Virus record (IMG/VR): IMGVR_UViG_3300017650_000001
Span: 1 to 64,000 of that record
DNA from: a virus
Length of the DNA: 64,000 bases
Direction: 5' to 3' (one strand)
Program-made: the position numbers and the translations under genes
The notes under the pieces: model-generated
What the model was told of the DNA's origin: nothing
Database searches by the model: none
What the model saw: only the letters and a program-made list of their open reading frames with translations
Shown here: positions 4,350 to 55,192 of the stretch, piece by piece
How positions within the stretch are numbered: position 1 is the stretch's first letter
Layout: each line of letters begins with the position of its first letter

Positions 4350-4527
4350 AATACCTCTGCTAACCTCTGTTAAGCTACCGCAAACCGCGGTAGAAGACGA
4401 TTGTACGAGATTAGGGCGGCGGCTCAAATCCCAGCGCGGGAAGCCTTCCTAGTAGGAGTTGAACTCTATTGAGTTCTATCCTCTTCAACAATGTCTGCGT
4501 GACACGTTGGTAACAACTTCTAGGGAA
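4350..4527 (-). ncRNA. Structured leader of the capsid operon
   Basis: Hairpins at 4486-4509, 4461-4476, 4421-4445, 4375-4393 and 4359-4375; possible closing helix 4446-4452/4520-4527. Confidence 0.55.
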
Positions 4528-4554
4528 ATTAAGGCGGGTTCTACAAATACGCAA
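4526..4554 (-). promoter_or_regulatory. Candidate sigma70-type promoter TTGCGT-N17-TAATTT
   Basis: 17-bp spacing; the same TTGCGT hexamer occurs at 55225-55230 and 14305-14310. Confidence 0.45.
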
Positions 4555-4578
4555 GAATATTGTATCTTGTAGATTAAA

Positions 4579-4791
4579 CTAGTCTTTCAAGTTTGTGGAA
4601 CTCAATTGCTCATCAGCAAGAGCATCCACAATTATTGCTCGTAAATAAACTGATATTTTGACTTTGTTACTTTTGGCTAGTTTGTCAAGAAGAGCGTAGT
4701 CCTGATGCGTAATCCACGTCGCAACAGGACGATGGTTAGCATCATAGGAGTTTTCTTTGGGCTTTTGACGCTCTTCTTTCACAGTGAGCAT
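4579..4791 (-). CDS. Ribbon-helix-helix-like DNA-binding protein
   Basis: PVATWITHQDYALLDKLAKSNKVKISVYLRAII beta-helix-helix pattern. Confidence 0.5.
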   Translation of the reverse strand: MLTVKEERQKPKENSYDANHRPVATWITHQDYALLDKLAKSNKVKISVYLRAIIVDALADEQLSSTNLKD

Positions 4792-5114
4792 TCTACTTCT
4801 TCTTTTCCCAATGTAGGGAATCTACCCGTGATAGAAAGAATACGTAGCTATCTTTGGGCCGAATTGTATGAACGAGAATATCACTAGACTTGGAATCTTC
4901 CGCAGCCTTGTCAGGAATAGTTGAAACTTCAATCGGGGAGTCTGTATAATTACTGACTACGATGCTTCCTGACATCATCATCCTCTTGCTTTTCTTCTTG
5001 GCCTAGCAACGCCAATAGCGCTCGGATAAAGTTTTCCTGAGCGCTATTGTTTGTTGTTTTTGCGTACTCTAGTTGCTGTTGTAAATCACAACGTGAGTAG
5101 AGAGCACCCATCGA

Positions 5115-5663
5115 TCAATCCTCGATAGTGACCGGACGCATCATTTCCTTGATCAGCGTCGGTTTAGTACGCTGGAGCTCGTTGGCTTCAGACTTACCAA
5201 GGCGCTGTTCAGCTTCCCGCACCTGACGGCGCGACAACTGACGAATTTCACGACGAGCTTCTTCTGAAAGCTCCTTCGGACGCTCCATCAAGATCATGCC
5301 GTTCTTGATGATATTGGGCTCAACATATCCTGGAGGAACCCAATTAGGATGTCGCTTGGGATTGACCGGTTCCCAGCCCTGTTCCCGCATTTGCGCGATA
5401 TAGAAAGGATCATGTTGACCGGATACCGACCAACGCTTCCACTCGTACTCACTTCCCTCAGGGATTTCGTCCAAAGGAATGAAAAACACATCCTCGTTTA
5501 CCGTAGCTTTGCGTCGACGTGTGCGTTGACGCGGAGCGTCATGCTCCTCTACATGAGCAGCAGACCGATCCGCCGCGCCCCGACGCTGATGCACAGCCTC
5601 GCGTGGAGTAGCTGTTTCTGCATCATCTTCAATCTGAACACGCGTACCTACTCGTGACATCAT
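5115..5663 (-). CDS. Conserved phage head-module protein
   Basis: YEWKR..GWEPV..ILMERP motifs; between scaffold and capsid operon. Confidence 0.55.
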   Translation of the reverse strand: MMSRVGTRVQIEDDAETATPREAVHQRRGAADRSAAHVEEHDAPRQRTRRRKATVNEDVFFIPLDEIPEGSEYEWKRWSVSGQHDPFYIAQMREQGWEPVNPKRHPNWVPPGYVEPNIIKNGMILMERPKELSEEARREIRQLSRRQVREAEQRLGKSEANELQRTKPTLIKEMMRPVTIED

Positions 5664-5671
5664 CTATCTCC

Positions 5672-6781
5672 TTAGTGCGACGTACGGCCGAGCTTGCCTT
5701 CGGCTTCAAGCTCAAGCAGGTTGCGCGCGTACATTCCGTAAGCCTGTTGTTCAGGCAAATGTGGGAAAGAAACCTTCGCCATCTCTTGCTGATCGCGGGT
5801 CAAGCGAACTTCGCGGATGTTGCGAGCGGCTGGAGTTCCCGATGCAGAAGGAGCATCACGAGAAACAGGAGCAGCAACCGCAGGAGCAGCACGAGTTGGC
5901 TCTGCCGGAGGTTCAACAAGAGGTGCTGTGGCAGGGGTAACAGCAGCCGCAGCAGAAACAGGCTGACGAACACCAACATGCTCCTCAATAATACGGAAGT
6001 AATCAGGAGTATTGAGTTGGGTTCCTGATGCAATAGCTGCGTAATGCCCTTGCATCATCTTATTGTGCTTGACAGAGTCGCCACCCTGCTCAGGAGGCAA
6101 ACAATCAAGATGCATCCGAAGCCAATTCTGAGCTTGTGGAGCAAACTGAGACAAGAAACGTTCTGTCTGAGATGCTACAGGTTGTGGTTCAGCAGTATGG
6201 GTAGCAGTCTGACGAGCTCCCGATTCAAAAGCAGACTTTGCATCTTCAAGACGGTCAATAGCCGCAGCGGCCTTTGACATCTTGATCTGGATGTCTGCCA
6301 TCTTTGAGAATTCGCCCGCTTCCGCAGCGCGAGTATAAGCGTCCCGCTGTGCCTCAAGCTCACGATTAGCAGCTTCAAGACTGCTATCGATCATCGTAAG
6401 CTCGGTGTTAGCAGCGCGCTGTGCTGAGTCTTCCGCTTCCTTTATTGCTCGCTGTCGGTCACGTTCAGCTTGTTCGGCGCGGGTTCGTTCTGCGGCTGCG
6501 GTCGCTTCGGCAGCGACGCGCGCTTCATCAGACCTCTTGGCCTGAGCAATAGCCTCTTCAAGCGCCTTGTCGGGAGTCGTGCTCGGTGTAGCTGCTTCAA
6601 CATCAGGTTCAGGAGAAACGCGCTTGCGAGTTGTCTTGGGCTTTGGTTCTACTTCCGCAGCTGGCGGTGCTGCTACAGCAGCCTGTCCTCCTGCCGGATC
6701 GACAGGATTACCGTCTACTTGAACTTGTACCGTATCAAGATCATCGACTTGAACGGAGATGCTGTCATCATCTTTAGCCAT
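5672..6781 (-). CDS. Capsid scaffolding protein
   Basis: Ala/Glu coiled coil, Pro/Ala linker, C-terminal VRLT..QQEMAK..YARN; located between portal and MCP. Confidence 0.7.
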   Translation of the reverse strand: MAKDDDSISVQVDDLDTVQVQVDGNPVDPAGGQAAVAAPPAAEVEPKPKTTRKRVSPEPDVEAATPSTTPDKALEEAIAQAKRSDEARVAAEATAAAERTRAEQAERDRQRAIKEAEDSAQRAANTELTMIDSSLEAANRELEAQRDAYTRAAEAGEFSKMADIQIKMSKAAAAIDRLEDAKSAFESGARQTATHTAEPQPVASQTERFLSQFAPQAQNWLRMHLDCLPPEQGGDSVKHNKMMQGHYAAIASGTQLNTPDYFRIIEEHVGVRQPVSAAAAVTPATAPLVEPPAEPTRAAPAVAAPVSRDAPSASGTPAARNIREVRLTRDQQEMAKVSFPHLPEQQAYGMYARNLLELEAEGKLGRTSH

Positions 6782-6804
6782 TGTAAGCTCCTATGTTCCA
6801 TTGG

Positions 6805-8212: not shown

Positions 8213-10720
8213 TCACTTCTTCTTAGCTTGAGGTTTCGCTTTTGCTTTCGGCTGAGCAGCCTTGCTTTTTTGTGCAGAAGCACGCGATTGACGCTGCAAT
8301 CTCATCTTTTCAAGCTTGAGTTCATGCTCGCGTTGACGTTCCTCTGACTGCGCCTCATGTTCTTTATTCAACAAGTCCGCTTGTGTTTTCTGCTGTGCAA
8401 CACCTTGAGCTTGTATACTATTAGCGATACTGTTCACTTTTGCAAGTGCAACACCTTGAGCACGCTCTTGTGACTGTTGTTTCGATGCTGCGTCACGATC
8501 CAGATGACGATGCAGATTCTCTTGATTGGATTGATCCAAAGCCAATCCGTGCTGATCGTTGTGAACAACCATAGCACGCGCGACACCCAAAGCTGCGATG
8601 TTCTTGCGGGCGTCGAGCTCTTCGCTCTTCATCTGCATTTCTTGAAGATCTTTTTGAGCCTTGAGTCCGGTCTCGCGAGCCTTGTTTTGGCTGTCCGCCA
8701 TACGAGCTTGCGCCGACATTACGTTGGCTTGCGCTGAAATCGCTTGTGGATTCGGAGGTGCTGCTCCAGCAGGCACAGGCGGCTTAAACAAACTATCAGG
8801 ATCGTCAATGCCCATAACTGACAGAGCGCGTTTATCAACCTCATTGAGGTCCATCCCCATAGGGTTGCTCATCGCCATTTGACGCATAGCAACAACTTTG
8901 AGATAACGCTCGGTCTGGCTACTTGTATTTGGGTCAGCACGCGGCGTAAGGTCGGTATCGCTCAATGCAGCAAGGAATAGCTCAATGTGACGACGCTCAC
9001 CCTCAGCCAAAGCAGCCGCAACAGATTCTAAACCAGCTTCTTGAATTAGTATCCCGAGAACTTTACTCTTCTTGTTATGTCGCCATAGAGCAGATGGATC
9101 TTCCATCAACATGCTCTTGAGCATTTCAAACTCTTGACCCTGTGCTTGGTGCAAACGTTTGTGAACAGCTGAAATCAACTTTGTCGCTTGCTCAATCATA
9201 GCAAGCGTGGTGCCAACGGGAGCGTCTTGCTTACCTTCACCAACTTGTAGTTCGGTTGTACCTCCTACGCGCTGAGCAGTCTGAGCGATATTCTCAATCA
9301 GCTGGATAAAGACTGCAGACGGATCTTTGTAAGGTAGCGGCATGATCGAAGCGCGGATATCACCTCCGACCGTATCAACCGGCATACCTCCACCGGGAGG
9401 AACTCTGAACTGGTTGGTAAGTTGTTTCTGAAGCGACTTGACATACAAGAACCCCGGGAAGTTCGAGAACATTCCCGCGTCAATCATCAAGCGCCAAGCT
9501 GCCGTCACAGCCTTAGTTGCGTTACCAAGGATGTTTACAAGACCAATTCCATAGAAGCCCAATCCAGGAATGAAGATATACGCAATGATACGATTGCGTG
9601 CCATACATAGCGGATCGTCTTCTTCCCAATTACGACGAATTTCAAGAATGCGTCGCGCTTCACGATCAATTGTTACCTTATAAGGAAGGGGCAGTCCTGT
9701 CTGATTGCCCTTGTAGGTATGCTCAAAACCAGGAACTTCAATTTCGCAATAGCACTCATAGAGTTCACGATCTTGATCGTCAGGCTCAACGTAACTTGGC
9801 GGCGCGATGCCTTGAACTTGTTGAATCTTAGCATCAACAGGATTGGGTGACATTGGCAATCCTGGAGCTTGTAAATCAATATTTCGATAGGCTCCAACAA
9901 GTTGCATTCGCTTGAAGTCTGAAGGCTTCATTAAAACGCGATGAGTAACACGGACCGCACCGTCAAGAGTTGTCGCAGCATTGCTAACAATCAGATCTTT
10001 TGAGTCAATTGACTCAATAACAGGACGACGCTTTAGCGGGTGGTGATACCCTTTCTTGAAAGAGATGCCCGAGAATCCCAGCATCAACAACATGCGGTCG
10101 GTATCAGGGACGTACTCTTTTGCAACCTTTGTCAAGTAGTAGTTGAGATCTTTCTCAAGAGCATCCGCCAGCTTAGACGACAGCGCATTGGATTCACCAT
10201 CATTGCGAATCTTTACAGGGCCATCTGATGGCAAGAGCTCGCCGCGAGCATTGGCTTGAAATCGCAGTACAGCTTCCAGCAAGAGAGGGTGATCAACCGT
10301 TGATACGCCTTCTGATGGCGTTGCTCCGGCTACTGTTGCGCCACGCGGCTGTTTAACTTCCAAACCAAGAAGGGAAATGCTGTTAGTAACGTTTTCAAGC
10401 CAACCAGCACGCGATTGGATGTCACTGTCGATACCAAGGAGGAGTTTCTCAGCAATCACAGAAAGCTGACTCTCATCTAACAAGTCAGCTAGGTTATCTT
10501 CAAACTTGGAATCTTTTTTCTTGGGCTGCGGAGGACCCATCGAAATAACAACGTCACCATCAGGCAACGCTATTTGTGTTGTATTCGTAGATACGTCGAA
10601 CTGAACAGCTTCAGGAGTATCCGTCGAAACAACAATATCGCCACCCACAGGAGAAGCGGGTGGCGCATCCTTGAAATAATTCTGACCTAAATCGAGAACG
10701 GCAGCGTTTGTCTTGGACAC
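8213..10720 (-). CDS. Portal protein with long Gln-rich C-terminal coil
   Basis: HPLLLEAVLRFQANARGELLP, GLGFYGIGL, APVGTTLAMIEQ motifs. Confidence 0.9.
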   Translation of the reverse strand: MSKTNAAVLDLGQNYFKDAPPASPVGGDIVVSTDTPEAVQFDVSTNTTQIALPDGDVVISMGPPQPKKKDSKFEDNLADLLDESQLSVIAEKLLLGIDSDIQSRAGWLENVTNSISLLGLEVKQPRGATVAGATPSEGVSTVDHPLLLEAVLRFQANARGELLPSDGPVKIRNDGESNALSSKLADALEKDLNYYLTKVAKEYVPDTDRMLLMLGFSGISFKKGYHHPLKRRPVIESIDSKDLIVSNAATTLDGAVRVTHRVLMKPSDFKRMQLVGAYRNIDLQAPGLPMSPNPVDAKIQQVQGIAPPSYVEPDDQDRELYECYCEIEVPGFEHTYKGNQTGLPLPYKVTIDREARRILEIRRNWEEDDPLCMARNRIIAYIFIPGLGFYGIGLVNILGNATKAVTAAWRLMIDAGMFSNFPGFLYVKSLQKQLTNQFRVPPGGGMPVDTVGGDIRASIMPLPYKDPSAVFIQLIENIAQTAQRVGGTTELQVGEGKQDAPVGTTLAMIEQATKLISAVHKRLHQAQGQEFEMLKSMLMEDPSALWRHNKKSKVLGILIQEAGLESVAAALAEGERRHIELFLAALSDTDLTPRADPNTSSQTERYLKVVAMRQMAMSNPMGMDLNEVDKRALSVMGIDDPDSLFKPPVPAGAAPPNPQAISAQANVMSAQARMADSQNKARETGLKAQKDLQEMQMKSEELDARKNIAALGVARAMVVHNDQHGLALDQSNQENLHRHLDRDAASKQQSQERAQGVALAKVNSIANSIQAQGVAQQKTQADLLNKEHEAQSEERQREHELKLEKMRLQRQSRASAQKSKAAQPKAKAKPQAKKK

Positions 10721-10942
10721 TTAATCCGATGGCATTTTTGTGTGCTTGTACACCCCTATGATACCCGAATGCAGATAGCCACCAACGGATTTGGCTCCAG
10801 CAAGTTCGTCAAATGTAGAGCGGTCAATGTCTGCATAATGATACAAAGAACCATCAGAAAAAGCAACCGCTAGAGTTCGTTCTTTAGGATCGTATCCAAT
10901 TTCTTTGATACTACTCGATTTAACAGGCTGCATATCAATCAT
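10721..10942 (-). CDS. KTSC domain protein
   Basis: VKSSSIKEIGYD..L.V.F..G..Y.Y..AKSVGGY. Confidence 0.85.
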   Translation of the reverse strand: MIDMQPVKSSSIKEIGYDPKERTLAVAFSDGSLYHYADIDRSTFDELAGAKSVGGYLHSGIIGVYKHTKMPSD

Positions 10943-12944: not shown

Positions 12945-13187
12945 CTACTTCACCAATTTGATGTTTATTGCCTTGCCGCCCTTGCCAGGAACAGGCATGA
13001 GGTCAAACTCAAGCATGTCATCTTCTTTGACATTACTGATGCCAGCTCTTTCAAGATTCTTAGAGCTAAAGAAGATATCTTGGTCGTGTCGGCTTGCTCC
13101 CTTACAGAAGCCATACCCACGATCACGGCTGTAAAACTTCACAGGAGCAGACATACGCTTGTAAACGAACTGATCTTCTTTTTTCAT
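12945..13187 (-). CDS. Cold-shock domain protein
   Basis: VKFYSRDRGYGF (RNP1), DIFF (RNP2), GKAINI. Confidence 0.85.
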   Translation of the reverse strand: MKKEDQFVYKRMSAPVKFYSRDRGYGFCKGASRHDQDIFFSSKNLERAGISNVKEDDMLEFDLMPVPGKGGKAINIKLVK

Positions 13188-13381
13188 GTTTCACTTTTCT
13201 CGACAAGGATATTCAAAATCTTGGTACCGCGATGAATACGCGATCGAACTGTCCCAATTGGGATATTCAATTCCGTAGAAATCTGTTTGTATGTACTGCC
13301 CAGTGAGCGCATCAACATAGGGCTGAAATACTGCCGCAATTCAACCACATGCGCTGTTATGTCACTTGCAAGAAGTGTCAC
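13184..13381 (-). CDS. Stand-alone sigma-70/ECF region 4 HTH protein
   Basis: TYKQISTELNIPIGTVRSRIHRG. Confidence 0.7.
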   Translation of the reverse strand: MTLLASDITAHVVELRQYFSPMLMRSLGSTYKQISTELNIPIGTVRSRIHRGTKILNILVEKSET

Positions 13382-13538: not shown

Positions 13539-14252
13539 CTAGTGAGCGGTTTCTTTGTTGCTTTCTTCGACGTCTTCGTCATCGCGATTCCCCAAAGCTA
13601 CCAAAGACAAGCCCAGTTCACGAGCTTCGGATTCGATCTCCTTGCGAAGCTGAGATGCGGTCTTGTTAACATCATCAATCTTCTCGATGTTCTTGTCACG
13701 CTCGTCAGGAATGTTGAACGCTTGACGTTCAAGTTGGACCCACTGACGTGCTGCGGTAGACAAGTCACGCAGAATGGTTGAACGCGATCCTAGCGAGACA
13801 GCTCGACGAACAGCTTCTTGTCGATGCGGTGATATTGTTGAAGTAATCAATTCCTGAAGCTCGCCCGCATAAGCTGTTGATGCATCTAGCTCATCCAACA
13901 TACGCATCACCAGTTTATGGCCGTGACCAATTGACTTCTGGTGTTCGCGCAAGACTTGGATTTGAGTTCGTGCAGCCTGCTCAACAATCGCTTCATCTGT
14001 CAGGCGATCGAGTTCTTCCGCAGCGTTCTGCCCGCCACCATAATTGTCTGCAAGACTTTCAATCAACTTCATCCGAGTCTTTTCTCGGACAGCATCGGTT
14101 AGGTCGCGCTTCCATCCATGCTTCTTAGCATGGTGTCGGATGTTACCCGAAACCGTTCCTGATTCTCGCGCGATTTCCTCAAGCGATAGCAAGCCTTGCT
14201 TATACAGCTTCTCGATGCGCTTCCAGTCGATGTGTTTCTTGATATTTGCCAT
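13539..14252 (-). CDS. Terminase small subunit (probable)
   Basis: IDWKRIEKLYKQG..SLEEIA..G..IRHHAKKHGWKRDL HTH; C-terminal LERQAFNI; start placed at ATG 14252. Confidence 0.7.
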   Translation of the reverse strand: MANIKKHIDWKRIEKLYKQGLLSLEEIARESGTVSGNIRHHAKKHGWKRDLTDAVREKTRMKLIESLADNYGGGQNAAEELDRLTDEAIVEQAARTQIQVLREHQKSIGHGHKLVMRMLDELDASTAYAGELQELITSTISPHRQEAVRRAVSLGSRSTILRDLSTAARQWVQLERQAFNIPDERDKNIEKIDDVNKTASQLRKEIESEARELGLSLVALGNRDDEDVEESNKETAH

Positions 14253-14313
14253 GCTGCGTACCCAAACTATACCTTCATTGAACTTAGTATAGTTTGCGCT
14301 ACCCACGCAAGAT

Positions 14314-16752: not shown

Positions 16753-18498
16753 TCATACGCCGTAGTGCTGCGCGACGCTCTCCTGATTGCCGCGATAAGT
16801 TGCAGCATCATCCATAGCAGCGGACATTTCTTCGGCCATAACCAAGACTTCGTTGTCTCGTGCCCAATTCAAGAATTGAGTGACAGAGTCAACCAAGTCG
16901 TCGTGCGCTGCTTTAGGGAAACTTTCACATTGTGCAATCACCAATTCAGCCCACTTGGTATTTGGTGCATAGATTGCATCGTCCGTGAATAGAGGAACGG
17001 TTGTATGGGCGCGTGAAATCTTGTCCTGTACAGGGTTCAAAAGCTGCACGCCCCAATTCTCGCGCGAGTACTGTCTGCGAATTTCATTGGCGACATCATG
17101 CCCGCGAGTCTTGTCTTCAATCAGCAGACGCTTGACTTTATAGCGCTTACAGGTGTCAGCTACCCACTGAATCAATCCCCAGTTGTCTTGCTGTCGCTGC
17201 TTGAATACGACCGGAAGCTCATTAGGCTGGATGAATACTTCCTTGCCGTTTAAAGGAAGTCGTTTCTGCCAAGCGTACATTAACATCGCTCGACGGTTGC
17301 GTGCACGGTCCAAAAAAATGCCCCAAATGGTCAACGCATTGAAGTCGTTCTCTTCTTTCTCTTTTTGGGCTGTATCCAAGGAAGCTACAATCAATTCACA
17401 GTGTGGGAACTCACGCACTCCGCCTGCCCACTCAAGTCCATAAAGGCGTGCTTCGTTCTCATCCCAAAGCTTCCACCAATCGCGCTGAAGGATGTTACCA
17501 CCCTTCTGTTTCGGACTCTGCTGTAGACGACCAGCCGCAGCATAAGGACCAAGTGCTTTCTCTAGTCCTGCGACTTCGAATTCACCGAAGCGGTCGCCCC
17601 ACATCAAGTCTTCAGAATCCTCATCGCGTGGGTCTTCCCACGGTCCTGCATCATCATATTGTGGAAGCTTGACAGTCACACAATGTCGCGTTGGATCGTG
17701 ACGCATCGGAATCATCAAGTGTGTCACGTCGTCACCACTGTCCAACCAGTGTCCCGAGACATCCTCGTCATGGACGCGCTGCTGAACGTTGATGATTGCA
17801 AACTTACCTTCACGCGGATCGTTACGACGAGTGGATCGGAATTCGTCCCAGAAGGACGATGCTTTAGCACGTTCCGCACCCGTTTCAACAAGCTTTTCTG
17901 TTTCCGTGTTATTCAAATCGTCGCCGATTAGAATGTCACCACCAAGACCGAGCAACGAACCACCAACCGAAGTTGATTGCCGCGAACCGCCTTTGTTGTT
18001 GTCCATGTGACTCTTGGCATCCTGGTCACGACGGAAATTGAGTTCTGGATACAAAGCTTTGTACCATTCACTCTTTACAAGTCGACGGAAACTGTTTGAG
18101 CTCAGCATGGTCAGCTTATCAGAATAGCTGGCGCAAAGGAAACGAACTTGCGGACCAGACAATGGAGCAATGTCGTTCGACCGCAGCCATATCCAAGCTG
18201 GGAACATGATAGATACAATTGTGGTCTTGGAACAGCGCGGCGGAATGTTAATTAACAGTCTCGGAATGTGTCCGAGCATGACTGCTTCTAGATGATCACA
18301 AACAGCCTCAATTGCCCAGTTAGCCATAAAGGGCGATGGATCAACATGAGGCCAAGCATGTTCTACAAATTTGAGCAGCGAGTCTTGACAATCTTCTCGA
18401 ACCTCAGCCAGTTTATATCGGTTGATCTTCTGCTTTAGCGCAACCAACCGTTCATGGTCAGGCCCGCCCCATTTCTGGTTCAGGGAAAGGTCAAACAT
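16753..18498 (-). CDS. terL: Terminase large subunit
   Basis: Walker A NIPPRCSKT, Walker B ILIGDD, QQR, nuclease SLDTA and HDDLVDS. Confidence 0.95.
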   Translation of the reverse strand: MFDLSLNQKWGGPDHERLVALKQKINRYKLAEVREDCQDSLLKFVEHAWPHVDPSPFMANWAIEAVCDHLEAVMLGHIPRLLINIPPRCSKTTIVSIMFPAWIWLRSNDIAPLSGPQVRFLCASYSDKLTMLSSNSFRRLVKSEWYKALYPELNFRRDQDAKSHMDNNKGGSRQSTSVGGSLLGLGGDILIGDDLNNTETEKLVETGAERAKASSFWDEFRSTRRNDPREGKFAIINVQQRVHDEDVSGHWLDSGDDVTHLMIPMRHDPTRHCVTVKLPQYDDAGPWEDPRDEDSEDLMWGDRFGEFEVAGLEKALGPYAAAGRLQQSPKQKGGNILQRDWWKLWDENEARLYGLEWAGGVREFPHCELIVASLDTAQKEKEENDFNALTIWGIFLDRARNRRAMLMYAWQKRLPLNGKEVFIQPNELPVVFKQRQQDNWGLIQWVADTCKRYKVKRLLIEDKTRGHDVANEIRRQYSRENWGVQLLNPVQDKISRAHTTVPLFTDDAIYAPNTKWAELVIAQCESFPKAAHDDLVDSVTQFLNWARDNEVLVMAEEMSAAMDDAATYRGNQESVAQHYGV

Positions 18499-40914: not shown

Positions 40915-41610
40915 TCATGACAGTTTCATCACTTTGAGGAAATCGCGCCGCCACAGGAATCCAAGCAGTAGAACAGACAGAGCACCCGCAGCGGCTGCGG
41001 TATAGAGGTGCCCATCTCCGATCACAGATAAAACAACAGCATCCGTTGAAATTGTCTCTCCCGCGATCCAGCCTAGCAAACCAGCACCCAGCCAGATCAA
41101 AATTGGAAGCCTATCCAAGACCTCTACAATAAAGGAAGCACCTGCGATAATCAAAGGAATACTAAGCGCAAGACCGATTCCCAGCAACAACAAGCTTCCA
41201 TTCGCAGCGGCCGCAACAGCAATGATGTTATCAAGGCTCATAGTCGCATCTGCGATCAGCACAGTGACAATAGCTGAAAAGAGTGTAGCTGCTTCCGATA
41301 CCTTTGAATCTTCTTCTTTAGGCGGAGCGAGCAGCTTAACTGCAATAATAAACAGGAGGAAACCACCGATAGCCTTAGCGTAAGGCCATTCCATCACTGT
41401 TGATGCGAATCCTGTTAGGACAACCCGCATCGCAACAGCAGCAACGGCGCCAAAGACCATACCCAAAGCACGCTGCCGATGTGGAAGATTGCGGCACACC
41501 ATAGCAATAACAAGAGCGTTATCGCCAGATAGAAAGATATCAATCCAAACAATTTTGCTGAATGCCAGCCAAAATAAAGGATGCGAAATCTCGTTGTACA
41601 AATATTCCAC
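40915..41610 (-). CDS. terC: TerC-family (YjbE-like) membrane protein
   Basis: IDIFLSGDNALVIAMVCRNLP; ADATMSLDNIIAVAAAA. Confidence 0.9.
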   Translation of the reverse strand: MEYLYNEISHPLFWLAFSKIVWIDIFLSGDNALVIAMVCRNLPHRQRALGMVFGAVAAVAMRVVLTGFASTVMEWPYAKAIGGFLLFIIAVKLLAPPKEEDSKVSEAATLFSAIVTVLIADATMSLDNIIAVAAAANGSLLLLGIGLALSIPLIIAGASFIVEVLDRLPILIWLGAGLLGWIAGETISTDAVVLSVIGDGHLYTAAAAGALSVLLLGFLWRRDFLKVMKLS

Positions 41611-41631
41611 GGAAACCCCCTATAAGAACAT

Positions 41632-41729
41632 CAGGAGGAGTAGGTCTGTTTGCTTCTCTAGCTGACTAGGCCAGGATATCCGTATAGTCTTATACGGCCA
41701 AAGCTACCACAGGTTGCTTACTCCTCCTG
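41632..41729 (-). ncRNA. Structured terC leader (yybP-ykoY-like position)
   Basis: 11-bp closing helix 41719-41729/41632-41642; UAGCU/AGCUA helix; CCGUAUA/UAUACGG hairpin at 41680-41697. Confidence 0.55.
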
Positions 41730-41736
41730 TAACCGA

Positions 41737-42192
41737 TTAGAACTCGAACTTGGACGGGTCGACGCCGAGACGGTCAGCGATCTTCTTCAGGACTGCTTCT
41801 TCCTCCGGAGCGACGGAACCATCTGCCGAAGCGATGTCCGCAGCGACGAGGTAGACATCTTCCGACATCGCCTTGCCGTTCTCCAACCCGCGTACCTTGT
41901 CAATGTAGCGAGCCAATTCCTGGCGCCCAGACTTGTCCTTCGACAGCTTCAGCATCCGGTCCGTGGTTTCTTCGATCTTGTCGCCGCTATACAGCTTCGA
42001 AAGTGTCGAGTGATTGCGGATTAGCGAAATTGCCTTGGTACGCTCGCTGTCCTCGATCACACCATCCGCGTTAGCCACAAGAGCAGATGACGAACAGACC
42101 GCATTCAAGAAATCATCTGTCTTGCCGTATTCCGACGACACTTCCTTGACGCCGGACGCAATAGCCTTCTTCAAGGCTCCGAAAATGCTCAT
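41737..42192 (-). CDS. terB: TerB-family protein
   Basis: ALVANADGVIEDSE; DIASADGSVAPEEEAVLKKIADRLGV. Confidence 0.85.
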   Translation of the reverse strand: MSIFGALKKAIASGVKEVSSEYGKTDDFLNAVCSSSALVANADGVIEDSERTKAISLIRNHSTLSKLYSGDKIEETTDRMLKLSKDKSGRQELARYIDKVRGLENGKAMSEDVYLVAADIASADGSVAPEEEAVLKKIADRLGVDPSKFEF

Positions 42193-42221
42193 ATAGTATC
42201 TCCCAAAATGAGCTATAGATT

Positions 42222-42266
42222 GGCGCTGATGAAACGGTTTGGGCCGCGCCGAAAACCCAAACCGTT
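42222..42266 (-). ncRNA. H-type pseudoknot upstream of terB
   Basis: 11-bp stem 42233-42243/42256-42266; loop GGCGC complementary to downstream GCGCC (42222-42226). Confidence 0.5.
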
Positions 42267-42273
42267 CGCAAAC

Positions 42274-44054: not shown

Positions 44055-44072
44055 GCAACTACATACGCAACG

Positions 44073-45726: not shown

Positions 45727-46218
45727 TCAACTAAAATCGCGCACATACCGTGTAGCAACTTCAGGTATTGCTAAGTTATCTACGCGAATGTCGTATTCTT
45801 TCGCGATACGCAGAGCTTGTCCCGTCCCACCTCCCATCAATCCTGCTTTGGTCCAACAGATAATCAACATAGTAGGAGTCTTGAGATCGTGTCCCAAAAC
45901 TTGGTGGCAATTGCGCGCATGGAAAGCGCGGGCTGTTTCATTACAATTATGCCATGCAGGATGAAATTGTGCAGCCATCTTGAAAGCAGCTTCGGTCGGA
46001 AGCAGTTTTGACTTGGAACCATTAAATCCCAGCCAGGGGAGATAAATCTCCTTCTGGTCACCAGCTCCTTTTTCAAAGGCGGTATCAGCGCCCTTAGCTC
46101 CTCCAGAACGCAAAGTATAACCAGAAATAGCCATCTTCTTAGCCGTTCTGGTCATAAGGCGCATGACTGCTTCAGGAGTTTCTCGACTACCTATTCCTGT
46201 ATAAATGAAGTCAACCAT
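45727..46218 (-). CDS. SLOG/DprA-like Rossmann-fold protein
   Basis: YTGIGSRETP, LRSGGAKGADTAFE, ARN, GGTGQA. Confidence 0.75.
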   Translation of the reverse strand: MVDFIYTGIGSRETPEAVMRLMTRTAKKMAISGYTLRSGGAKGADTAFEKGAGDQKEIYLPWLGFNGSKSKLLPTEAAFKMAAQFHPAWHNCNETARAFHARNCHQVLGHDLKTPTMLIICWTKAGLMGGGTGQALRIAKEYDIRVDNLAIPEVATRYVRDFS

Positions 46219-48767
46219 TACACACCCTTAATTTCAACAATTCCATTCCATTTATCGTTCGCAAACTTACCGACTTCCTCCATATGGATCCAATCTTCAC
46301 CAACACTCATTTCAACTTCAATTGGGACAATGTTGGCCCATTCAAAAGGAACAGTAATCATGTTGTGGACAACAATCTCTGCTCGCTTTTCAATTTCATC
46401 CTTTGGCCAGCAGAAAGTCAAATCGTCGTGGACCATCAGCATAGGTTGGTAACGCGGATCCTCCCGCTCAGACAGTCGCGCCATAGCATCCATGACAATT
46501 ATGCTCTCATCGCTCTGGATTGGCGTGTTGATGCGTTCATTTGGCGAGACTGGGGCATAGCGCCGGAAACCTGACAACCCTGTGACATAGCCATTTTTGA
46601 AATAGAACTTCTCAAGCGCTTTATGCCACTTGGCAATATCATGGAATTGATCGAAGAATTCTTCTTGAATACCCTCAATCACATTCTTTGGGATACTCAA
46701 ACTTTCAGATATTGAGAAGGCTTGTGCTCCAAAGAACGATGGGAATACAAATTTGTTTTTTGCAAGGTGTCGGAAAGACTTCAAAGCAGCTTTGTCTTGT
46801 AACGCTGACTTAGGTATCCATCGTGGGTAATGTTTGTTGATTGTCTCCATCCACGTCGTGTGGATATCATAATTGTGCCAATAAGCATCGACCAAAGCTT
46901 GATCTTTTGATTCCATGGCCACATTTCGAGCTTGAATACCCGAGTAGTCAAAAGATACAATTCGCATGTTTGCATCGGGATGCTTAACTTGCGCGCGAAC
47001 TTCTTTCTGTTCCTCGTGGCGTTTAGGCCAATTCTGAATATTGGGGTCACTTGATCCCGTCCGCCATGAAATTGTAACAGTCGATGAAATGATCGGATGC
47101 ATCATTCCATCTGGGAAAACAACATTATCCTCTTCTTCCTCGTCAACAGGAAGAATATAGGTGCTCAAAACCTTGTTAACTTCACGCCATCGCACAATCT
47201 TCTTGGCAATAGGATGATCGACATGGTCAAGATCACCTTTAGTTGATTTTTCAATGTTCTGTTTGAGAACATCGCGCATCAAGAAGTTGACATCAGGTAC
47301 GGATGATGGATTGAACGCTCGTCCTTTTAATTCTTCAAACTTCCGGACAGCATCTTCTTCGTTAATTTCCGCAGCGATTTTTGCAGCTCGCTTTTTATAC
47401 TTCTTCTTAAAGTCCTGTACAACATCTTGCGAGACAGGAACACCCTCCAACTGACCGAGTACAAGTGATGGAAGTCGTCGTAATTGTTGCCTGTAAACAC
47501 TAACTAACTTTCGATCTTTGATCAAAGGAACTTGCGCGAGGTACAGATTGCGATGGTACCGCGCGTCAATCGCATTGTATTTCAAAACTTGAGGAAGTGG
47601 GGACTTCTCAAGATTCTTGCGGTCGAGACCTGAAATAGCTTTCAGATTGAGTCCAAAATGGAGTAAGCAGAGGAAGTCCAAAGATAGACCACCGCGGCGA
47701 GCATCAAGAACGTAAGCTTGAGACTCACTATCTTCCCAACGTCCTGCATAGAAACAGCCGCGTCCATAGAAATAGCCAAACCACTCCAGCTCAAATGGTA
47801 AGTGATGGACGATTTTCCTGCACTTCGATTCATATAAGAAGCGTTTGATCAAAACATCAAGCTGCTTTCGCTCTAAAACAGTCCAAGTCGCTTGTGGATG
47901 ATCTACTGGAAAAGCAAACGTCATCGACTTTGACGATACTGCAATACTTAGAATCTTGGCTTTTTTCTGGAAAGGTCGAAGGCAATTTGTTTCGATATCA
48001 ACGCCTGCTGACGGCTCGTTTGCTGCAATATCCAACAATTCAGCAATACGACCGATATCTTCTACCAGTTCAATATCAGATGTTGCGTAGTCAACAGTGT
48101 GAATATCAGGTTCTGGAAGTTTTTCAACTTCTGAGAAGGCTCTTGCGACATCAAGCGCAAACGCAAACTCCTCTTCACTACCGTAAGAATTAGCATCACG
48201 CGGTTCAAACTTCCGCAGACATTGAATGTACGAAGGATGATGCATTGGGTAGTACCAACAATCGTGGTTCCCAATGCGGACAGGCAAGCGACGCCCACGC
48301 CAAAGACCAATGCTTCGATACTTTGAATCAGGATTTACAATCTGATACAAAGGAATTGAACCGAACCCAAAAATGGCTCGAGGCTTGTGCTGCTCAACAT
48401 CACGCACAAGTCTCGGATAGCAACATGTGAATTCGACAACTTCTGGGGTTCGATTATCAGGAGGTCGGCAGTTTACCGCATTCGTCCAACGAATATCACG
48501 ATCATCCCAGTCTTCCGGGATCCGCATCCGCAACACGCGGCCCGCTTTACCTACAAACTGGCGACCTTTTTCATCCTCGTTACGTCCGGGAGCTTCTCCA
48601 ACGATAAGAACTGTGGGACTCTTGCTTCCCGTAGGTTCCATCTTTGGAGACAAATTTTGGACTTGGTTCAGCGGGCAGACTGAACACTCATGACGCTTCA
48701 AGAAGTCTGGAGATAAGCCTTTGAGGTTTTTGTCAGCTTTCTTGCTTTCGGTGAAAAAGAATCCCAT
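46218..48767 (-). CDS. Family A DNA polymerase with N-terminal family-4 UDG-like domain
   Basis: C..CPL, GEAPG..E, FVG.AG, CRPPDNRTP, HPS; exonuclease DIET and YNAIDA; PNIQN; motifs A DYSGIQAR, B RHLAK..FPSFFG, C VHDD. Confidence 0.92.
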   Translation of the reverse strand: MGFFFTESKKADKNLKGLSPDFLKRHECSVCPLNQVQNLSPKMEPTGSKSPTVLIVGEAPGRNEDEKGRQFVGKAGRVLRMRIPEDWDDRDIRWTNAVNCRPPDNRTPEVVEFTCCYPRLVRDVEQHKPRAIFGFGSIPLYQIVNPDSKYRSIGLWRGRRLPVRIGNHDCWYYPMHHPSYIQCLRKFEPRDANSYGSEEEFAFALDVARAFSEVEKLPEPDIHTVDYATSDIELVEDIGRIAELLDIAANEPSAGVDIETNCLRPFQKKAKILSIAVSSKSMTFAFPVDHPQATWTVLERKQLDVLIKRFLYESKCRKIVHHLPFELEWFGYFYGRGCFYAGRWEDSESQAYVLDARRGGLSLDFLCLLHFGLNLKAISGLDRKNLEKSPLPQVLKYNAIDARYHRNLYLAQVPLIKDRKLVSVYRQQLRRLPSLVLGQLEGVPVSQDVVQDFKKKYKKRAAKIAAEINEEDAVRKFEELKGRAFNPSSVPDVNFLMRDVLKQNIEKSTKGDLDHVDHPIAKKIVRWREVNKVLSTYILPVDEEEEDNVVFPDGMMHPIISSTVTISWRTGSSDPNIQNWPKRHEEQKEVRAQVKHPDANMRIVSFDYSGIQARNVAMESKDQALVDAYWHNYDIHTTWMETINKHYPRWIPKSALQDKAALKSFRHLAKNKFVFPSFFGAQAFSISESLSIPKNVIEGIQEEFFDQFHDIAKWHKALEKFYFKNGYVTGLSGFRRYAPVSPNERINTPIQSDESIIVMDAMARLSEREDPRYQPMLMVHDDLTFCWPKDEIEKRAEIVVHNMITVPFEWANIVPIEVEMSVGEDWIHMEEVGKFANDKWNGIVEIKGV

Positions 48768-49844: not shown

Positions 49845-50956
49845 GCCTCAAACTCATCCACTCTTGCGATTCTTTGTAGCGTAGCTTGAACTCGTTTGAC
49901 ACGATAAGCCTCGCTGCTCAATACTTTCAGGGTTGTTTTCCGCGGACGCGAAGTAGTCTGCTCAGGAAGACCTGTAGCCAGGTATCTTCCCAAGAAATCA
50001 TCAGGCAGGTCCTTCAAAAAAGCATACGACAGCAATCGATTTCGAATACCTTGCTCATTCAAGAAGATATTGTGGTGCTTGGTATGGAGTACCGTCGCAA
50101 AGTACATTCGAAGCGGTTCGGGCTGATACCCTTTCTTCTTTGAAGTCTCTTGCTCAAACATGCTACGAATACGATTTTTGAACAAACGACCGTCACATGT
50201 CGCAGCCATTCCCAAATGATATCTGATATTGAACTTCCAACGCCCGATAAACGTGTTGCGAAGCTCGCTCATTGGGACTCCAGCGTCCTCAGCAGCTTTG
50301 CGTACGAAATCTTGTTGCGCCTCTGATAGCCCATCAAAACCGTTTGATTGGTCCATCTTACGAGCAGAGATTCGCATAGTCTGAGGTGGCTTGGTAAAGT
50401 CGGGGATCCCGTTCACATATCGCGGGACCAGAATCGATCCATAGCCTCCTCCCACAGACCAGCTCGTGCTGTCAACTGAGTACCATGGATATCGACGGCA
50501 CAGTGCTGAAGCAGTAACTCCAAATCCGTGGGTCTTGATGAATGGTTTTCCTTCACGGTCTGTGATCCTTGTGAAGCATTTGTCCATCCACTCGATGATT
50601 TCGTTTTGATGGGCACGCATATAAGGCGAAATTCCGACATAGGTTTCTCCATCCGCAACCATCTTGTCCAACCACTCAAAGCGCTCACCTTGGTGAAAGA
50701 CCGGGATTGGGTGCAAGCCTTCAGACTTCATCGATTGAAGATTGTCATAAGATTTCGCAGCGGAATTCTCAATCGAGGCTTGCGTGTGGTCCATCTTCCC
50801 GTTCTCGCCGGGAATACAATCGAGGTTGACGTAAGCATCAACCTCGTCTTGATGATTCTTGCAATAGGTGATATAATCTTTCAGCGGAATTTCGCCACCA
50901 CGACGCCATGCGCTGAACGCACCAGAATCAAGCAGAACTCCACAGATAGTAGTCAT
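49841..50956 (-). CDS. TGT-fold transglycosylase, DpdA-like (7-deazaguanine insertion into DNA)
   Basis: LLDSGAFS, NLD.I, PVFH, HGFG, YSVDSTSW; coupled to folE. Confidence 0.75.
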   Translation of the reverse strand: MTTICGVLLDSGAFSAWRRGGEIPLKDYITYCKNHQDEVDAYVNLDCIPGENGKMDHTQASIENSAAKSYDNLQSMKSEGLHPIPVFHQGERFEWLDKMVADGETYVGISPYMRAHQNEIIEWMDKCFTRITDREGKPFIKTHGFGVTASALCRRYPWYSVDSTSWSVGGGYGSILVPRYVNGIPDFTKPPQTMRISARKMDQSNGFDGLSEAQQDFVRKAAEDAGVPMSELRNTFIGRWKFNIRYHLGMAATCDGRLFKNRIRSMFEQETSKKKGYQPEPLRMYFATVLHTKHHNIFLNEQGIRNRLLSYAFLKDLPDDFLGRYLATGLPEQTTSRPRKTTLKVLSSEAYRVKRVQATLQRIARVDEFEA

Positions 50957-51561
50957 CAGATTTTTACAAGACCATGTGACGCTGTTGTTACCATTTGCAT
51001 GAACTCAGCACGACAATCAGGTTCATCTTTGATGCATCCACGCAGCGCTGAACTCATAGTCACAGTACCAACTCGCTGGATACCTCGAGACTCCATACAC
51101 AAATGGCGAAGCTGCATAACAACACCAACTCCCTTGGGGTGTAGGTTGTCCATGAGTGCATCAGCAATTTGTTGAGTCATACGCTCCTGCACTTGTAAAC
51201 GGCGCGCAAAGATATCTGCAAGACGTGAAAGTTTCGAAAGCCCAACAACTCGACCATTCGGGACATAAGCGATATGAGCAATTCCAAACATACCCGCTAA
51301 GTGATGTTCGCAATGGCTATAGATTGGGATGTTTGCTTGGAACAGGAGTTCGTCGTATTTCTCGCCGCCGTCATCAAATGTTTTGAGAACGTCTTTGGGA
51401 TCCTGCTCATAACCTGAGCACCAGAACTTCCAAGCTTTCGTAGCGCGGTCAGGAGTTTCTTTCAAACCTCCACGATCGGGATCTTCCCCAAACCGTTTTA
51501 AAAGCTGCGTAAACAGCTCTGCCTCTGAAAGAACTTCTTTTTCTGACAACAATTTATTCAT
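50956..51561 (-). CDS. folE: GTP cyclohydrolase I
   Basis: GL.ETP.R, SHCEHH, GLSKL.R, RRLQVQERMT, HLCM..RG. Confidence 0.95.
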   Translation of the reverse strand: MNKLLSEKEVLSEAELFTQLLKRFGEDPDRGGLKETPDRATKAWKFWCSGYEQDPKDVLKTFDDGGEKYDELLFQANIPIYSHCEHHLAGMFGIAHIAYVPNGRVVGLSKLSRLADIFARRLQVQERMTQQIADALMDNLHPKGVGVVMQLRHLCMESRGIQRVGTVTMSSALRGCIKDEPDCRAEFMQMVTTASHGLVKI

Positions 51562-51581
51562 TCTATCCTTCCAACAGAAGT

Positions 51582-51665
51582 GTGGACGCGAGCCTACGCA
51601 TCACTGAAAGCTCGCGTCCACTAGCAACGCAAAGAGGGGGCTGGGGGACTGGCCTCTGCGTGCTA
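51582..51665 (-). ncRNA. Two-hairpin leader of folE
   Basis: 12-bp stem 51582-51593/51610-51621 plus adjoining bulged hairpin 51622-51665. Confidence 0.5.
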
Positions 51666-51668
51666 TCA

Positions 51669-52337
51669 CTACATACGCGCAAAGCTCCATAGCTTTGTTG
51701 AAAATGACAAATCACGAGTTCGTGATTGGGGACGACTCGCCCAATCAAGAATATCGTCTACTCGATGCTTCAAACCAAAGTGCTCGCACCATTCTTTCAA
51801 ACGTTTGAGTTTTCGAATTGTATCTTGTACAGATTCTTCTGATATAGGCGTGATCTCGCAAAGTGCTCCACGCTCACCATCTACACGGAGCATAGCCCAA
51901 CCGCGACCAAACAACTTTGTCGTGAGTCTATTTGCTCTGTCCGGGTTATCAAATTTGATAGATCGAATCAACTCAAAATCACAAGAGAAAGGCTGCTTTC
52001 CATGTACACCGCAACGACCATTTGACATATTCAGATTTCTACAATGGTGATTGTTGTGGTCTAGTTGCATATCTGAATAGAGTTCGATTGATCGACCATC
52101 AAATTCAACTACTCGTTTCGACATAGTATACGGCATAAGTTCTGAAGGCAAGTAGTCAAGCGAAAATCGTGGGCAACACCCCCCACATTTTGCAGGACAT
52201 GTAAATCCTCGAAAAATGGTAGATCGAACTGTTAGGGATCGTCGCGCGTATTGCTTCTTCTTGTAAACAAAAGGCTCGTCAGCTACCACCGAAAAGTAAC
52301 TGTCTACAATTTTGTCTACAGAATCAACGAGAGGCAT
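51669..52337 (-). CDS. YkgJ/FliB-like cysteine-cluster (Fe-S/Zn) protein
   Basis: CPAKCGGCC...C..L....CGVH..QPFSC. Confidence 0.7.
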   Translation of the reverse strand: MPLVDSVDKIVDSYFSVVADEPFVYKKKQYARRSLTVRSTIFRGFTCPAKCGGCCPRFSLDYLPSELMPYTMSKRVVEFDGRSIELYSDMQLDHNNHHCRNLNMSNGRCGVHGKQPFSCDFELIRSIKFDNPDRANRLTTKLFGRGWAMLRVDGERGALCEITPISEESVQDTIRKLKRLKEWCEHFGLKHRVDDILDWASRPQSRTRDLSFSTKLWSFARM

Positions 52338-53601: not shown

Positions 53602-53606
53602 TATGC

Positions 53607-54416
53607 TTACACCTCTGCTGAATCTTGATAGATAGTTGGATCATCAATACCAGCTTCAAGAAAAGCTTCACGTCGTGAACGACATGTAGGGCAAACGCCG
53701 CAATGGAATTCGTCTCCTTTGTAACAAGACCACGTATCCTCAAACCGGACACCTAGTTCATCACCAAGAGAAACAACTCCTGTTTTATTGAGCCATTCAA
53801 GAGGCGTGTGCAAACGGATTTGCATATACGACCCAATGTAGATCGCGTTTGCCATCGCTCCGATAAATTCGGGAGTGCAATCAGGATAAGCCCAATTGTG
53901 AGCATCTTCGGAATGAGCCCCGAAGTAAATCCCTGCTGACACACTGCGGTCATCGGGGTGGTATTTGCCCGGGATTTCAACCTCTTTATTCTTCTCATTC
54001 ACCCACTTCTGGGCATGAGCAGTCAATGCTGAAAGCATAAGGCCATTGCGGAATGGGACATAGGTAGGAGAGACACCTTTGATTTGATCGTAACTGATGT
54101 CAGGCACGTCAACCTTGCCCCGGGAGTCATCTGTGAGCATGACAGCATCGCCGCGAAGAAGAGCGCCAACATCTAAGATAGTGTGCTTGATACGCAGACG
54201 CTCACAAGTCTTCGCAGCGTAATCCATTTCCTTCTTATGTCGCTGTCCGTAGTAAACACTAACAGCCTCGACCCAAAAGACAGGATCTTGCGCGTTGTTT
54301 CTGACAATGCTGCTCAAAGATTGAGTTGTATACTCAGGCGCATAGTCAAAGATTGCCTTGTGCAGGCAAGTTGTTGAATCAAGTCCTCCGGACAAGAGCA
54401 CAAAAGCTTTACGCAT
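53607..54416 (-). CDS. queC: 7-cyano-7-deazaguanine synthase
   Basis: LLSGGLDSTT, YGQRH..E, TYVPFRN, YPDC, TWSCY..HCGVCPTC. Confidence 0.95.
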   Translation of the reverse strand: MRKAFVLLSGGLDSTTCLHKAIFDYAPEYTTQSLSSIVRNNAQDPVFWVEAVSVYYGQRHKKEMDYAAKTCERLRIKHTILDVGALLRGDAVMLTDDSRGKVDVPDISYDQIKGVSPTYVPFRNGLMLSALTAHAQKWVNEKNKEVEIPGKYHPDDRSVSAGIYFGAHSEDAHNWAYPDCTPEFIGAMANAIYIGSYMQIRLHTPLEWLNKTGVVSLGDELGVRFEDTWSCYKGDEFHCGVCPTCRSRREAFLEAGIDDPTIYQDSAEV

Positions 54417-54434
54417 CTAGTCTCCCAAAAATAC

Positions 54435-54541
54435 TCGAGGGTTGATAGCCTTGAACCTGTTATGCCTCGAACGCTACCCGAGGCAGGCTATCTCTCTTTT
54501 CTGACGCCCTCGATCGCCAGTAAGGACAAACCGGGTAGCGT
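54435..54541 (-). ncRNA. Pseudoknotted multi-helix leader of queC
   Basis: Three nested perfect helices plus a 5' strand complementary to the terminal loop. Confidence 0.65.
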
Positions 54542-54545
54542 AGCT

Positions 54546-55073
54546 CTAAGCACTTCGCAGATACATACGCACCTCTTTGATGACATCAACATCTTTAGAG
54601 TTCAAACCCAAAAGCTTGCAGATGCGGTCATTCAAAGTTTCACGGCGTCCGTTTGCATAGCGTTCCAGCGGCTTTGAAACTTCTTCGCTACGCTGATCGC
54701 TGACCAACAAAGCAATTGTATCTTTAATGATCTTTGGAGCTTTGATCATCAAAACCTGAAAATCAGAATAGTCCGGGATGACCGCAGCATCACCTTCATA
54801 GACTTCAACAATATCACTGCGAGCATCATCCTGCTGTTTTGTTTTCTTGCGGGACAAGTCTGTGATGATGCAAGAGTAACAAAGCTTGAAGAGGCTCATA
54901 ATATGAGCTGGTTCAACAGCAGTGGGGTAGCGCCAACGAACTTCGTAGTAGGCAGCATAGCCCTCTTGTATCAGATCATCGTAGTCCATCCACGCAGCAA
55001 CACGCCAGTAGTTTTTTCGAGCGTAAGAGTGCATCCACGCCACCGCACCAGCGTCGGGAAGAACATCTGCCAT
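54546..55073 (-). CDS. Phage sigma-70-like factor (region 2 clear, region 4 degenerate)
   Basis: DYDDLIQEGYAAYYE...F......IITDLSRK; C-terminal ICKLLGL; start placed at ATG 55073. Confidence 0.6.
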   Translation of the reverse strand: MADVLPDAGAVAWMHSYARKNYWRVAAWMDYDDLIQEGYAAYYEVRWRYPTAVEPAHIMSLFKLCYSCIITDLSRKKTKQQDDARSDIVEVYEGDAAVIPDYSDFQVLMIKAPKIIKDTIALLVSDQRSEEVSKPLERYANGRRETLNDRICKLLGLNSKDVDVIKEVRMYLRSA

Positions 55074-55080
55074 TGTTGTG

Positions 55081-55192
55081 ATGCCTTTTGGTAACTTACG
55101 GAAAATTCCGGGGTCTGGACGGCCCCCGGCGCCGCCGTAAGAGGCATAGGTCCTAAGGGGTGAAGGAACTATGCAGCCCACCAGACTTGGGC
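55081..55192 (-). ncRNA. Three-hairpin leader with kissing loops, upstream of the sigma-like gene
   Basis: Hairpins 55176-55192, 55144-55174, 55096-55140; loop UCUGG complementary to loop CCAGA. Confidence 0.6.

Follow-up and report, generated by a model that had tools for sequence, protein, structure and literature searches.

The left 64 kb of a 103,620-bp uncultured soil phage genome with direct terminal repeats (IMG/VR record IMGVR_UViG_3300017650_000001; the 64,000 nucleotides (nt) analysed are referred to as the window) raises the question of whether nine of its longer intergenic gaps, named here by position as 4350, 14255, 34514, 35441, 41632, 42222, 51582, 54435 and 55081, belong to one regulatory layer. 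A preliminary description had proposed that these gaps hold strong, non-terminator RNA structure next to start codons and, with a phage-encoded RfaH-like factor, sigma factor, cold-shock protein and KTSC protein, make up a coordinated post-initiation control system. All nine gaps are present at the positions listed, and gene packing is as dense as described, with 77 of 116 junctions in a curated gene map overlapping or no longer than 10 nt, and 25 gaps of at least 40 nt. The gaps probably represent cis elements of several kinds, independent of one another, in a densely packed genome, and not one regulatory layer; in the best reading the set comprises one conserved leader upstream of a sigma-like gene, two partly conserved 5' untranslated region (UTR) structures, three boundary hairpins and three lineage-specific sequences.

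The conserved leader occupies gap 55081. Loci encoding the sigma-like protein were fetched from IMG/VR and JGI metagenomes using an alignment of its homologues, and all fetched loci in which the protein is 45-66% identical carry the same leader elements in the 120 nt upstream of the gene. P1 is a hairpin whose loop reads AGUCUGG in this phage and is invariant as AGUCUG(G/A) across the relatives, P2 is a hairpin of variable sequence with a CCCC loop, and P3 consists of an outer stem (CUUACGG/CCGUAAG) around a variable, covarying inner stem that ends in the loop (C/U)CAG(A/G)(C/U). Loops 1 and 3 pair with each other (GUCUGG/CCAGAC) to form a pseudoknot, and the tail AAGGCAUCACA precedes the AUG.

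Nine distinct phage sequences fold alike, each folded on its own, and a covariance model of the leader (R1) gives 73-115 bits, including for a locus (L091) that was absent from the seed. In the R1 alignment, paired cells make up 82% and 17 of the 34 pairs differ on both sides; none of 500 shuffles reaches these figures, and slid controls fall far below them. The pairing of loops 1 and 3 is kept in all nine sequences, with a final pair that is G:C in five of them, G:U in another two and A:U in L076 and L091. Of the three pseudoknots in the preliminary description, the one in this gap is thus supported by covariation. Leader lengths range from 118 to 132 nt and their differences are not multiples of three, indicating that the region is not coding; combined with the G-U wobbles, this favours an RNA made from the sense strand over a coding or DNA-level element. 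Structure is thus kept through compensatory changes, as in a conserved cis-regulatory RNA.

Model R1 matches the phage genome once only, and has no match in five more distant 100-kb relatives or in 151 genomes of the order holding a Xanthobacteraceae metagenome-assembled genome with a phage-like terC gene. No Rfam family among 4,227 matches the leader at gathering or permissive thresholds, and for preQ1 classes I-III a cmscan search of positions 54400-55250 at E ≤ 10 returned only chance miRNA, snoRNA and nrdJ rows. On comparative sequence evidence, the leader is a real, conserved and apparently undescribed RNA under structural selection.

The 175-aa protein encoded downstream has no Pfam or NCBIfam match, and the sigma-70 region 2 profile PF04542 has no match in the genome. 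The region 4 profile PF08281 has a sole match in the genome, a separate 65-aa protein (13184-13381, minus strand) encoded between the cold-shock-domain gene and terS, for which sigma-70 region 4_2 (32.8 bits) is in turn the sole match. The sigma factor of the preliminary description therefore stands by fold similarity and not by sequence profiles. An AF2 model of the 175-aa protein (predicted local distance difference test score, pLDDT, of 80) retrieved almost exclusively sigma factors as top matches with Foldseek and VIA; residues 1-78 align with domain 2 of sigma-28, sigma-E and SigW with Z 7.8-8.1 and a root-mean-square deviation of 2.6 Å over 76 residues, Z values below 8 being common for helical models. 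A DDLIQEGY motif resembles region 2.2, and 50 homologues were found in metagenomes. The protein is a probable sigma-like factor, judging from the predicted fold.

A promoter-like site, ATTGCG-N16/17-CTAT(A/G), is kept upstream of the leader in the relatives, and the sigma-like gene would thus have its own sigma-70-type promoter followed by the conserved leader. The leader most likely sets the amount and timing of sigma-like protein translation, its compact fold probably restricting the access of ribosomes until opened by some factor or condition. This translation-limiting role is suggested by the position of the leader and by the complementarity of loop 2 (CCCC(U)U) to the purine-rich ribosome-binding site, seen in seven of the nine sequences.

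Thermodynamic stability gives a different ranking of the gaps. When the sense strand of each gap was compared with 200 dinucleotide shuffles, with three gaps refolded as a recheck, five gaps were more stable than their shuffles (z-scores of -2.6 for 4350, -3.55 for 14255, -5.66 for 34514, -3.6 for 35441 and -4.39 for 51582, the last -4.1 on recheck). The other four were not as whole gaps, namely 41632 (-1.26, recheck -1.1), 42222 (-1.73), 54435 (-0.40, with a best 80-nt window of -3.7) and 55081 (-0.91). The strong structure claimed for all nine gaps therefore holds for five, and structures no more stable than shuffled controls, the outcome that the preliminary description had itself named as telling against its proposal, were found in four, 55081 among them. 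As the leader in 55081 is the best-supported RNA despite its z-score, stability is the wrong discriminator; nor can stability alone distinguish RNA hairpins from DNA palindromes, since the antisense strand is about as stable as the sense strand for 14255 (-3.8 antisense) and 51582.

A scan of the window in 80-nt steps of sequence gave a mean z of -0.52 for coding windows (3.0% below -3), -0.96 for all intergenic windows (11% below -3) and -1.45 for windows in the listed gaps (24% below -3; Mann-Whitney p = 0.002 versus coding). The fold enrichment in the listed gaps is real but modest, and only 9 of the 45 best-folding windows are intergenic, most lying inside genes. The strongest intergenic signal of the window (33272-33362, z -5.9) consists of two divergent copies of an early promoter. 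The stablest 80-nt windows outside promoters are inside coding sequence on the minus strand (1361-1440, 19521-19600 and 57681-57760, z -6.1 to -6.75). An 11-bp hairpin, GUAUCUGAUCU/AGGUCAGAUAC, at 22039-22118 on the minus strand, absent from the earlier list, reaches the start codon of an 860-aa gene (z -3.6); this gap, 33272-33362 and 2681-2779 are as structured as the listed ones.

The two partly conserved leaders precede folE (GTP cyclohydrolase I) and the scaffold/major-capsid operon, and in each case conservation rests on one relative. Hairpin 2 of the folE leader (51582-51621) has the loop GUGAUGCGU, and the box GCGTATGTAG lies at 51669-51678; the folE leader of L078 has the same two-hairpin layout, with the same loop on a different stem sequence. 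The capsid-operon leader contains a promoter-like box, TTGCGTATTTGTAG, at ~4541-4554 and a terminal hairpin (4375-4393) that includes GCGGTAGC. L122, in which the downstream protein is 62% identical, keeps the 3' half of this leader as several blocks, with a hairpin showing two compensatory pairs; the terminal hairpin, CUACCGCG-NUUU-GCGGUAG, is identical in both, and a pattern search for further copies found only the L122 contig. Both leaders would be 5' UTRs starting at a second promoter-like box (TTGCGT/GCGTATG), and their conserved hairpins probably stabilise or meter abundant middle/late transcripts. A possible trans pairing of the folE loop (GUGAUGC) with the tail of the sigma leader (GCAUCAC) was rejected, the 7-mer being common (27 copies versus ~13 expected) and the tail missing from L078 and L091 while L078 keeps the loop.

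Three gaps (34514, 35441 and 42222) hold GC-rich hairpins right after stop codons. As the preliminary description had it, scans of the window for intrinsic terminators (a GC-rich stem followed by at least five U in eight) called none of the nine gaps. The canonical terminators in the window are at 34263-34290 on the plus strand and at 2681-2779 on the minus strand; the latter, also outside the earlier list, follows the major capsid gene with a 10-bp stem and then UUUUUUGG. The hairpins in the three gaps resemble terminators or stabilising hairpins at operon boundaries, as does 2681-2779, but unlike intrinsic terminators their U-runs are short or missing and only 2681-2779 has a canonical U-tract. 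Weak termination, processing or a barrier at the 3' end would be their most likely role, and the hairpin in 34514 would also occlude the Shine-Dalgarno sequence of the next gene.

The remaining three gaps (54435, 41632 and 14255) appear to be lineage-specific sequences without detectable conservation. The queC leader in 54435 was not found at the same position in any relative examined; a 21-nt spacer separates the sigma-like gene from queC in L076 and L077, and queD directly precedes queC in L078, L082 and L006. The terS leader (14255) is missing from L039, whose terS is 54% identical. Searches for terC in viral contigs gave no useful comparator for 41632 or 42222, and searches for queF gave no relatives for 34514 or 35441. 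Gaps 35441 and 41632 share a 27-nt element, CTCCTCCTGAT-N-TT-NN-TATAGG, which lies 30 nt ahead of the start codon in each and there makes up the 3' arm of a GGAGGAG/CUCCUCC helix; the fetched relative loci contain no further copies. A 12-mer, AGCTACGCTACC, common to 14255 and 54435 was dropped, since 104 kb should contain hundreds of such repeats by chance.

Promoter-like elements probably account for part of this pattern. The early promoter, GCTTGCAATTGTA-N-CGTCTATAnAAT, occurs in ten copies that correspond to the "promoter copies" set aside in the preliminary description, and gaps with this promoter alone are unstructured (z -0.5 to +1.1). Its shape resembles alphaproteobacterial CTTGAC-N17-CTATAT promoters, which would fit the alphaproteobacterial nearest homologues of terC. 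The second promoter-like box, TTGCGT(ATGTAG) with the core GCGTATG, has 23 minus-strand and 6 plus-strand copies in the genome versus 6.3 expected per strand (for example at window positions 44068, 45726, 51678 and 54570 and at genome positions 78877-83926). Copies are present in the non-coding tRNA/Y-RNA region too, and ahead of the queC leader, where the sigma-like gene ends; in relatives the box is likewise found at the 3' end of the sigma gene. Boxes of the TTGCGT/GCGTATG type are present in gaps 4350, 14255, 51582 and 55081, so that the description of the gaps as not being promoter copies is right only for the early-promoter family; several of these gaps are probably a promoter plus a 5' UTR. 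The sigma-like factor would probably read the strand-specific GCGTATG box, which is a candidate for its promoter.

The RfaH-like factor, the cold-shock-domain protein and the KTSC protein are all encoded as claimed (Table 1). The RfaH-like NusG paralogue is identified by Pfam, PHROG and NCBIfam matches; it scores 99.7 bits over residues 1-159 against the NCBIfam RfaH model TIGR01955 (cut-off 144.5) and 43.7 bits against the NusG model, both below the equivalog cut-offs, with RfaH the best of the NusG-family models. Its probable role is to maintain the processivity of RNA polymerase over the one-directional gene blocks of 27-30 kb. The cold-shock-domain protein has RNP1-like RGYGFC and DIFFS motifs. 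Its gene and the KTSC gene lie in the packaging module near terS and portal, the former adjoining terS in L039 as well, and nothing ties them to the leaders.

In the 12-nt ops sequence, GGCGGTAGCGTG, bases C3, G4, G5, A7 and G8 are reported to be needed for RfaH recruitment (PMC5995543). When the capsid-leader sequence tGCGGTAGCtTa is compared with the ops element GGCGGTAGnnTG, the word GCGGTAGC matches ops positions 2-9 (and 11), including the recruitment bases, without G1 and G12. It occurs four times in the genome versus ~3 expected. The related word GGTAGC is on the sense strand in four of the nine gaps, being a hairpin arm in 4350 and part of the TTGCGT box in 14255. Genome-wide it has 51 copies versus ~51 expected, and a k-mer screen of the gaps, led by promoter and ribosome-binding-site words, does not rank it with the most enriched 6-mers; it was rejected as a common ops-like signal, being no more enriched than other 6-mers. 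The capsid-leader match is a lead, not a result.

The reading of the nine gaps as independent elements follows from the spread of whole-gap z-scores (-5.7 to -0.4), from conservation that differs gap by gap and from the lack of a common motif. The proposal in its original scope, in which the RfaH-like factor is loaded at GGTAG(C) words in the leaders, the cold-shock protein melts or chaperones those leaders and the sigma-like protein completes a middle/late layer, is quite unlikely. Its components are real, with every protein present and at least one conserved structured leader; the capsid word covers the ops recruitment bases (PMC5995543) and is kept in L122, GGTAGC is found in four gaps, and 35441 and 41632 have a module in common. 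Coordination itself is without support. Apart from that one module no motif is common to the leaders, which are unlike in structure and conservation, GGTAGC is at chance frequency, R1 has a single match, and the genes for the cold-shock-domain and KTSC proteins sit in the packaging module. The ops-like bases lack the G12 pause base and coincide with a conserved hairpin 3' arm in the capsid leader and with the TTGCGT box in 14255, so that their conservation can be explained in other ways. It is less credible still, indeed very unlikely, that leaders, GGTAG(C) words and RfaH-like, sigma-like and cold-shock proteins form one circuit in which the sigma leader is the master switch timing late transcription. 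Several observations do weigh against independence: the 27-nt element is reused at the same distance from a start codon, four leaders carry GGTAG(C), retention of the capsid ops-like word in L122 may indicate a link to the RfaH-like factor, and three or four structured gaps precede 7-deazaguanine genes (queC, folE and queF), which could reflect common control. Closer Logan relatives also exist (sigma-like protein 82% and 77% identical), and "not conserved" as used here rests on relatives at 45-66% identity.

Most of the structures could instead be DNA palindromes (operators or promoter inverted repeats) or chance GC-rich folds, leaving the sigma leader as the only real RNA. This is unlikely, and finds its support in the equal sense and antisense z-scores of 14255 and 51582, the promoter pair at 33272-33362, the four gaps no better than shuffles and the coding origin of most of the extreme z-scores. 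However, 34514 is far stabler in the sense orientation (-5.7 versus -2.3), the loop of the folE hairpin is retained on a stem of altered sequence, and the capsid leader has compensatory pairs. Highly improbable is the view that the gaps contain new metabolite sensors, of preQ0/preQ1 type before queC, folE and queF and of Mn2+ type before terC, as the position of these genes directly downstream of structured gaps might suggest. No known riboswitch was found in any of the nine gaps (Rfam at gathering and permissive thresholds, whole window), and no preQ1-class match appeared when short stretches were searched at E ≤ 10. The preQ1-type reading of the queC leader was rejected for want of an Rfam match and because the leader is missing from relatives that retain queC. 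The ends of the terC leader resemble the yybP-ykoY strands GGAGUAGC and AGCAAGACC; RF00080 (gathering score 45 bits) had no match at E ≤ 10 on 231 nt of this leader and none in the whole genome, and neither a riboswitch nor a similar leader precedes the nearest bacterial terC genes, so that the Mn riboswitch reading was likewise rejected. The whole-gap z-score is not significant for the queC or the terC leader. A mixed set of independent elements is thus the preferred reading of the nine gaps.

Table 1. Leaders, promoter-like elements and genes discussed in the text, in window coordinates unless marked as genome positions.
Feature	Position	Strand	Remarks
Sigma-like gene 5' leader	55075-55195	-	Three hairpins and loop-loop pseudoknot, ~120 nt
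Sigma-70-type promoter-like site TTGCGT-N17-TATAGT	55202-55230	-	Directly upstream of sigma leader
Sigma-like protein, 175 aa	54546-55073	-	Fold similarity only
queC leader	54417-54545	-	129 nt, apparently lineage-specific
folE (GTP cyclohydrolase I) leader	51562-51668	-	Two hairpins
Scaffold/major-capsid operon leader	4346-4578	-	Several hairpins
terS leader	14253-14313	-	TTGCGT box within imperfect palindrome
15-bp hairpin then UUUGC	34514-34567	-	3' arm holds GAGG Shine-Dalgarno sequence of 71-aa open reading frame
14-bp GGAGGAG/CUCCUCC hairpin with U-rich tail	35433-35500	-	Upstream of 50-aa open reading frame and queF
terC leader	41611-41736	-	11-bp closing helix CAGGAGGAGUA/UACUCCUCCUG around ~80 nt
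Hairpin between 372-aa gene and terB	42193-42273	-	Stem AACGGUUUGGG/CCCAAACCGUU, no U-tract
Early promoter, plus-strand copies	27985, 29777, 31982, 33297	+	
Early promoter, minus-strand copies	33341, 36555, 52647, 55506, 58545; genome 65836	-	
RfaH-like NusG paralogue (NGN + KOW)	31421-31915	-	Pfam NusG 2.3e-15; PHROG antiterminator
Cold-shock-domain protein, 80 aa	12945-13187	-	PF00313, 30.6 bits (cut-off 27)
KTSC-domain protein	10721-10942	-	65.6 bits
Major capsid protein	2780-3706	-	91% identical to G001
Portal	8213-10720		
TerS	13539-14252		
TerL	16753-18498		
Family A DNA polymerase	46218-48767		
queD-like	55508-55951	-	7-deazaguanine set
queC	53607-54416	-	7-deazaguanine set
folE	50956-51561	-	7-deazaguanine set
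queF	34815-35273	-	7-deazaguanine set
terB-terC pair	40915-42192	-	Insertion, missing from distant syntenic relatives

By megablast, no GenBank phage is a near relative of the genome in which these elements lie, and the best large-terminase match among such phages is 35% identical. Genes are on the minus strand throughout the window except for an early block at ~27.8-34.3 kb, whose plus-strand genes include an amidoligase_2 gene (32044-33054) and a gamma-glutamyl cyclotransferase-like gene (33363-33869). The queD/queC/folE cluster adjoining the sigma-like gene is kept across the phage clade, and queF scores above its NCBIfam cut-off. The closest homologues of terC are from Alphaproteobacteria/Xanthobacteraceae (44-50% identity). 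The major capsid protein is 91% identical to that of G001, a 103,891-bp IMG/VR phage (81245-82168 in that genome), with which otherwise only the structural module is shared, at 40-64% identity; this difference indicates mosaic exchange.

Several known systems offer points of comparison. The rpoS leader and the rpoH mRNA thermosensor are folded leaders that give post-transcriptional control of sigma factor levels. The phage leader is likewise long, folded and directly before a sigma-like gene, where it is placed to limit ribosome access. It differs in having no sequence or structure homology to either, in consisting of three hairpins and a loop-loop pseudoknot, and in being known here from sequence alone. 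With the T4 gene 32 leader pseudoknot and the T4 regA sites it shares the placement of a pseudoknot in a phage mRNA leader near the start codon, and autoregulation by the encoded protein is plausible, whereas the gene 32 element is a small H-type pseudoknot bound by the single-stranded DNA-binding protein and here a sigma-like gene lies downstream.

The small divergent sigma-like protein and the short strand-specific GCGTATG box at gene boundaries recall T4 gp55 and its -35-less promoters (TATAAATA); unlike in T4, the box is assigned to the protein by inference, and a sigma-2-like domain seems to be joined in this protein by a C-terminal helical one. As in the E. coli RfaH-ops system, an NGN + KOW protein is found with GCGGTAGC on the non-template strand of a long late operon leader. 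The phage protein is, however, below the equivalog cut-off, the incomplete word is at chance frequency and doubles as a hairpin arm, and recruitment is putative.

The shuffle z-score is a poor guide in this genome, where the best-conserved RNA is not significant and promoter palindromes are found among the very stable gaps. Well supported as an RNA, the sigma leader matches none of the Rfam families searched. In the phage clade that carries it, which comes from soil and peat metagenomes and has ~100-kb genomes, its place is always immediately before a divergent sigma-like gene. The leader gives a concrete route to understanding how an uncultured phage may time its own sigma factor, and one that is approachable without culturing the phage.

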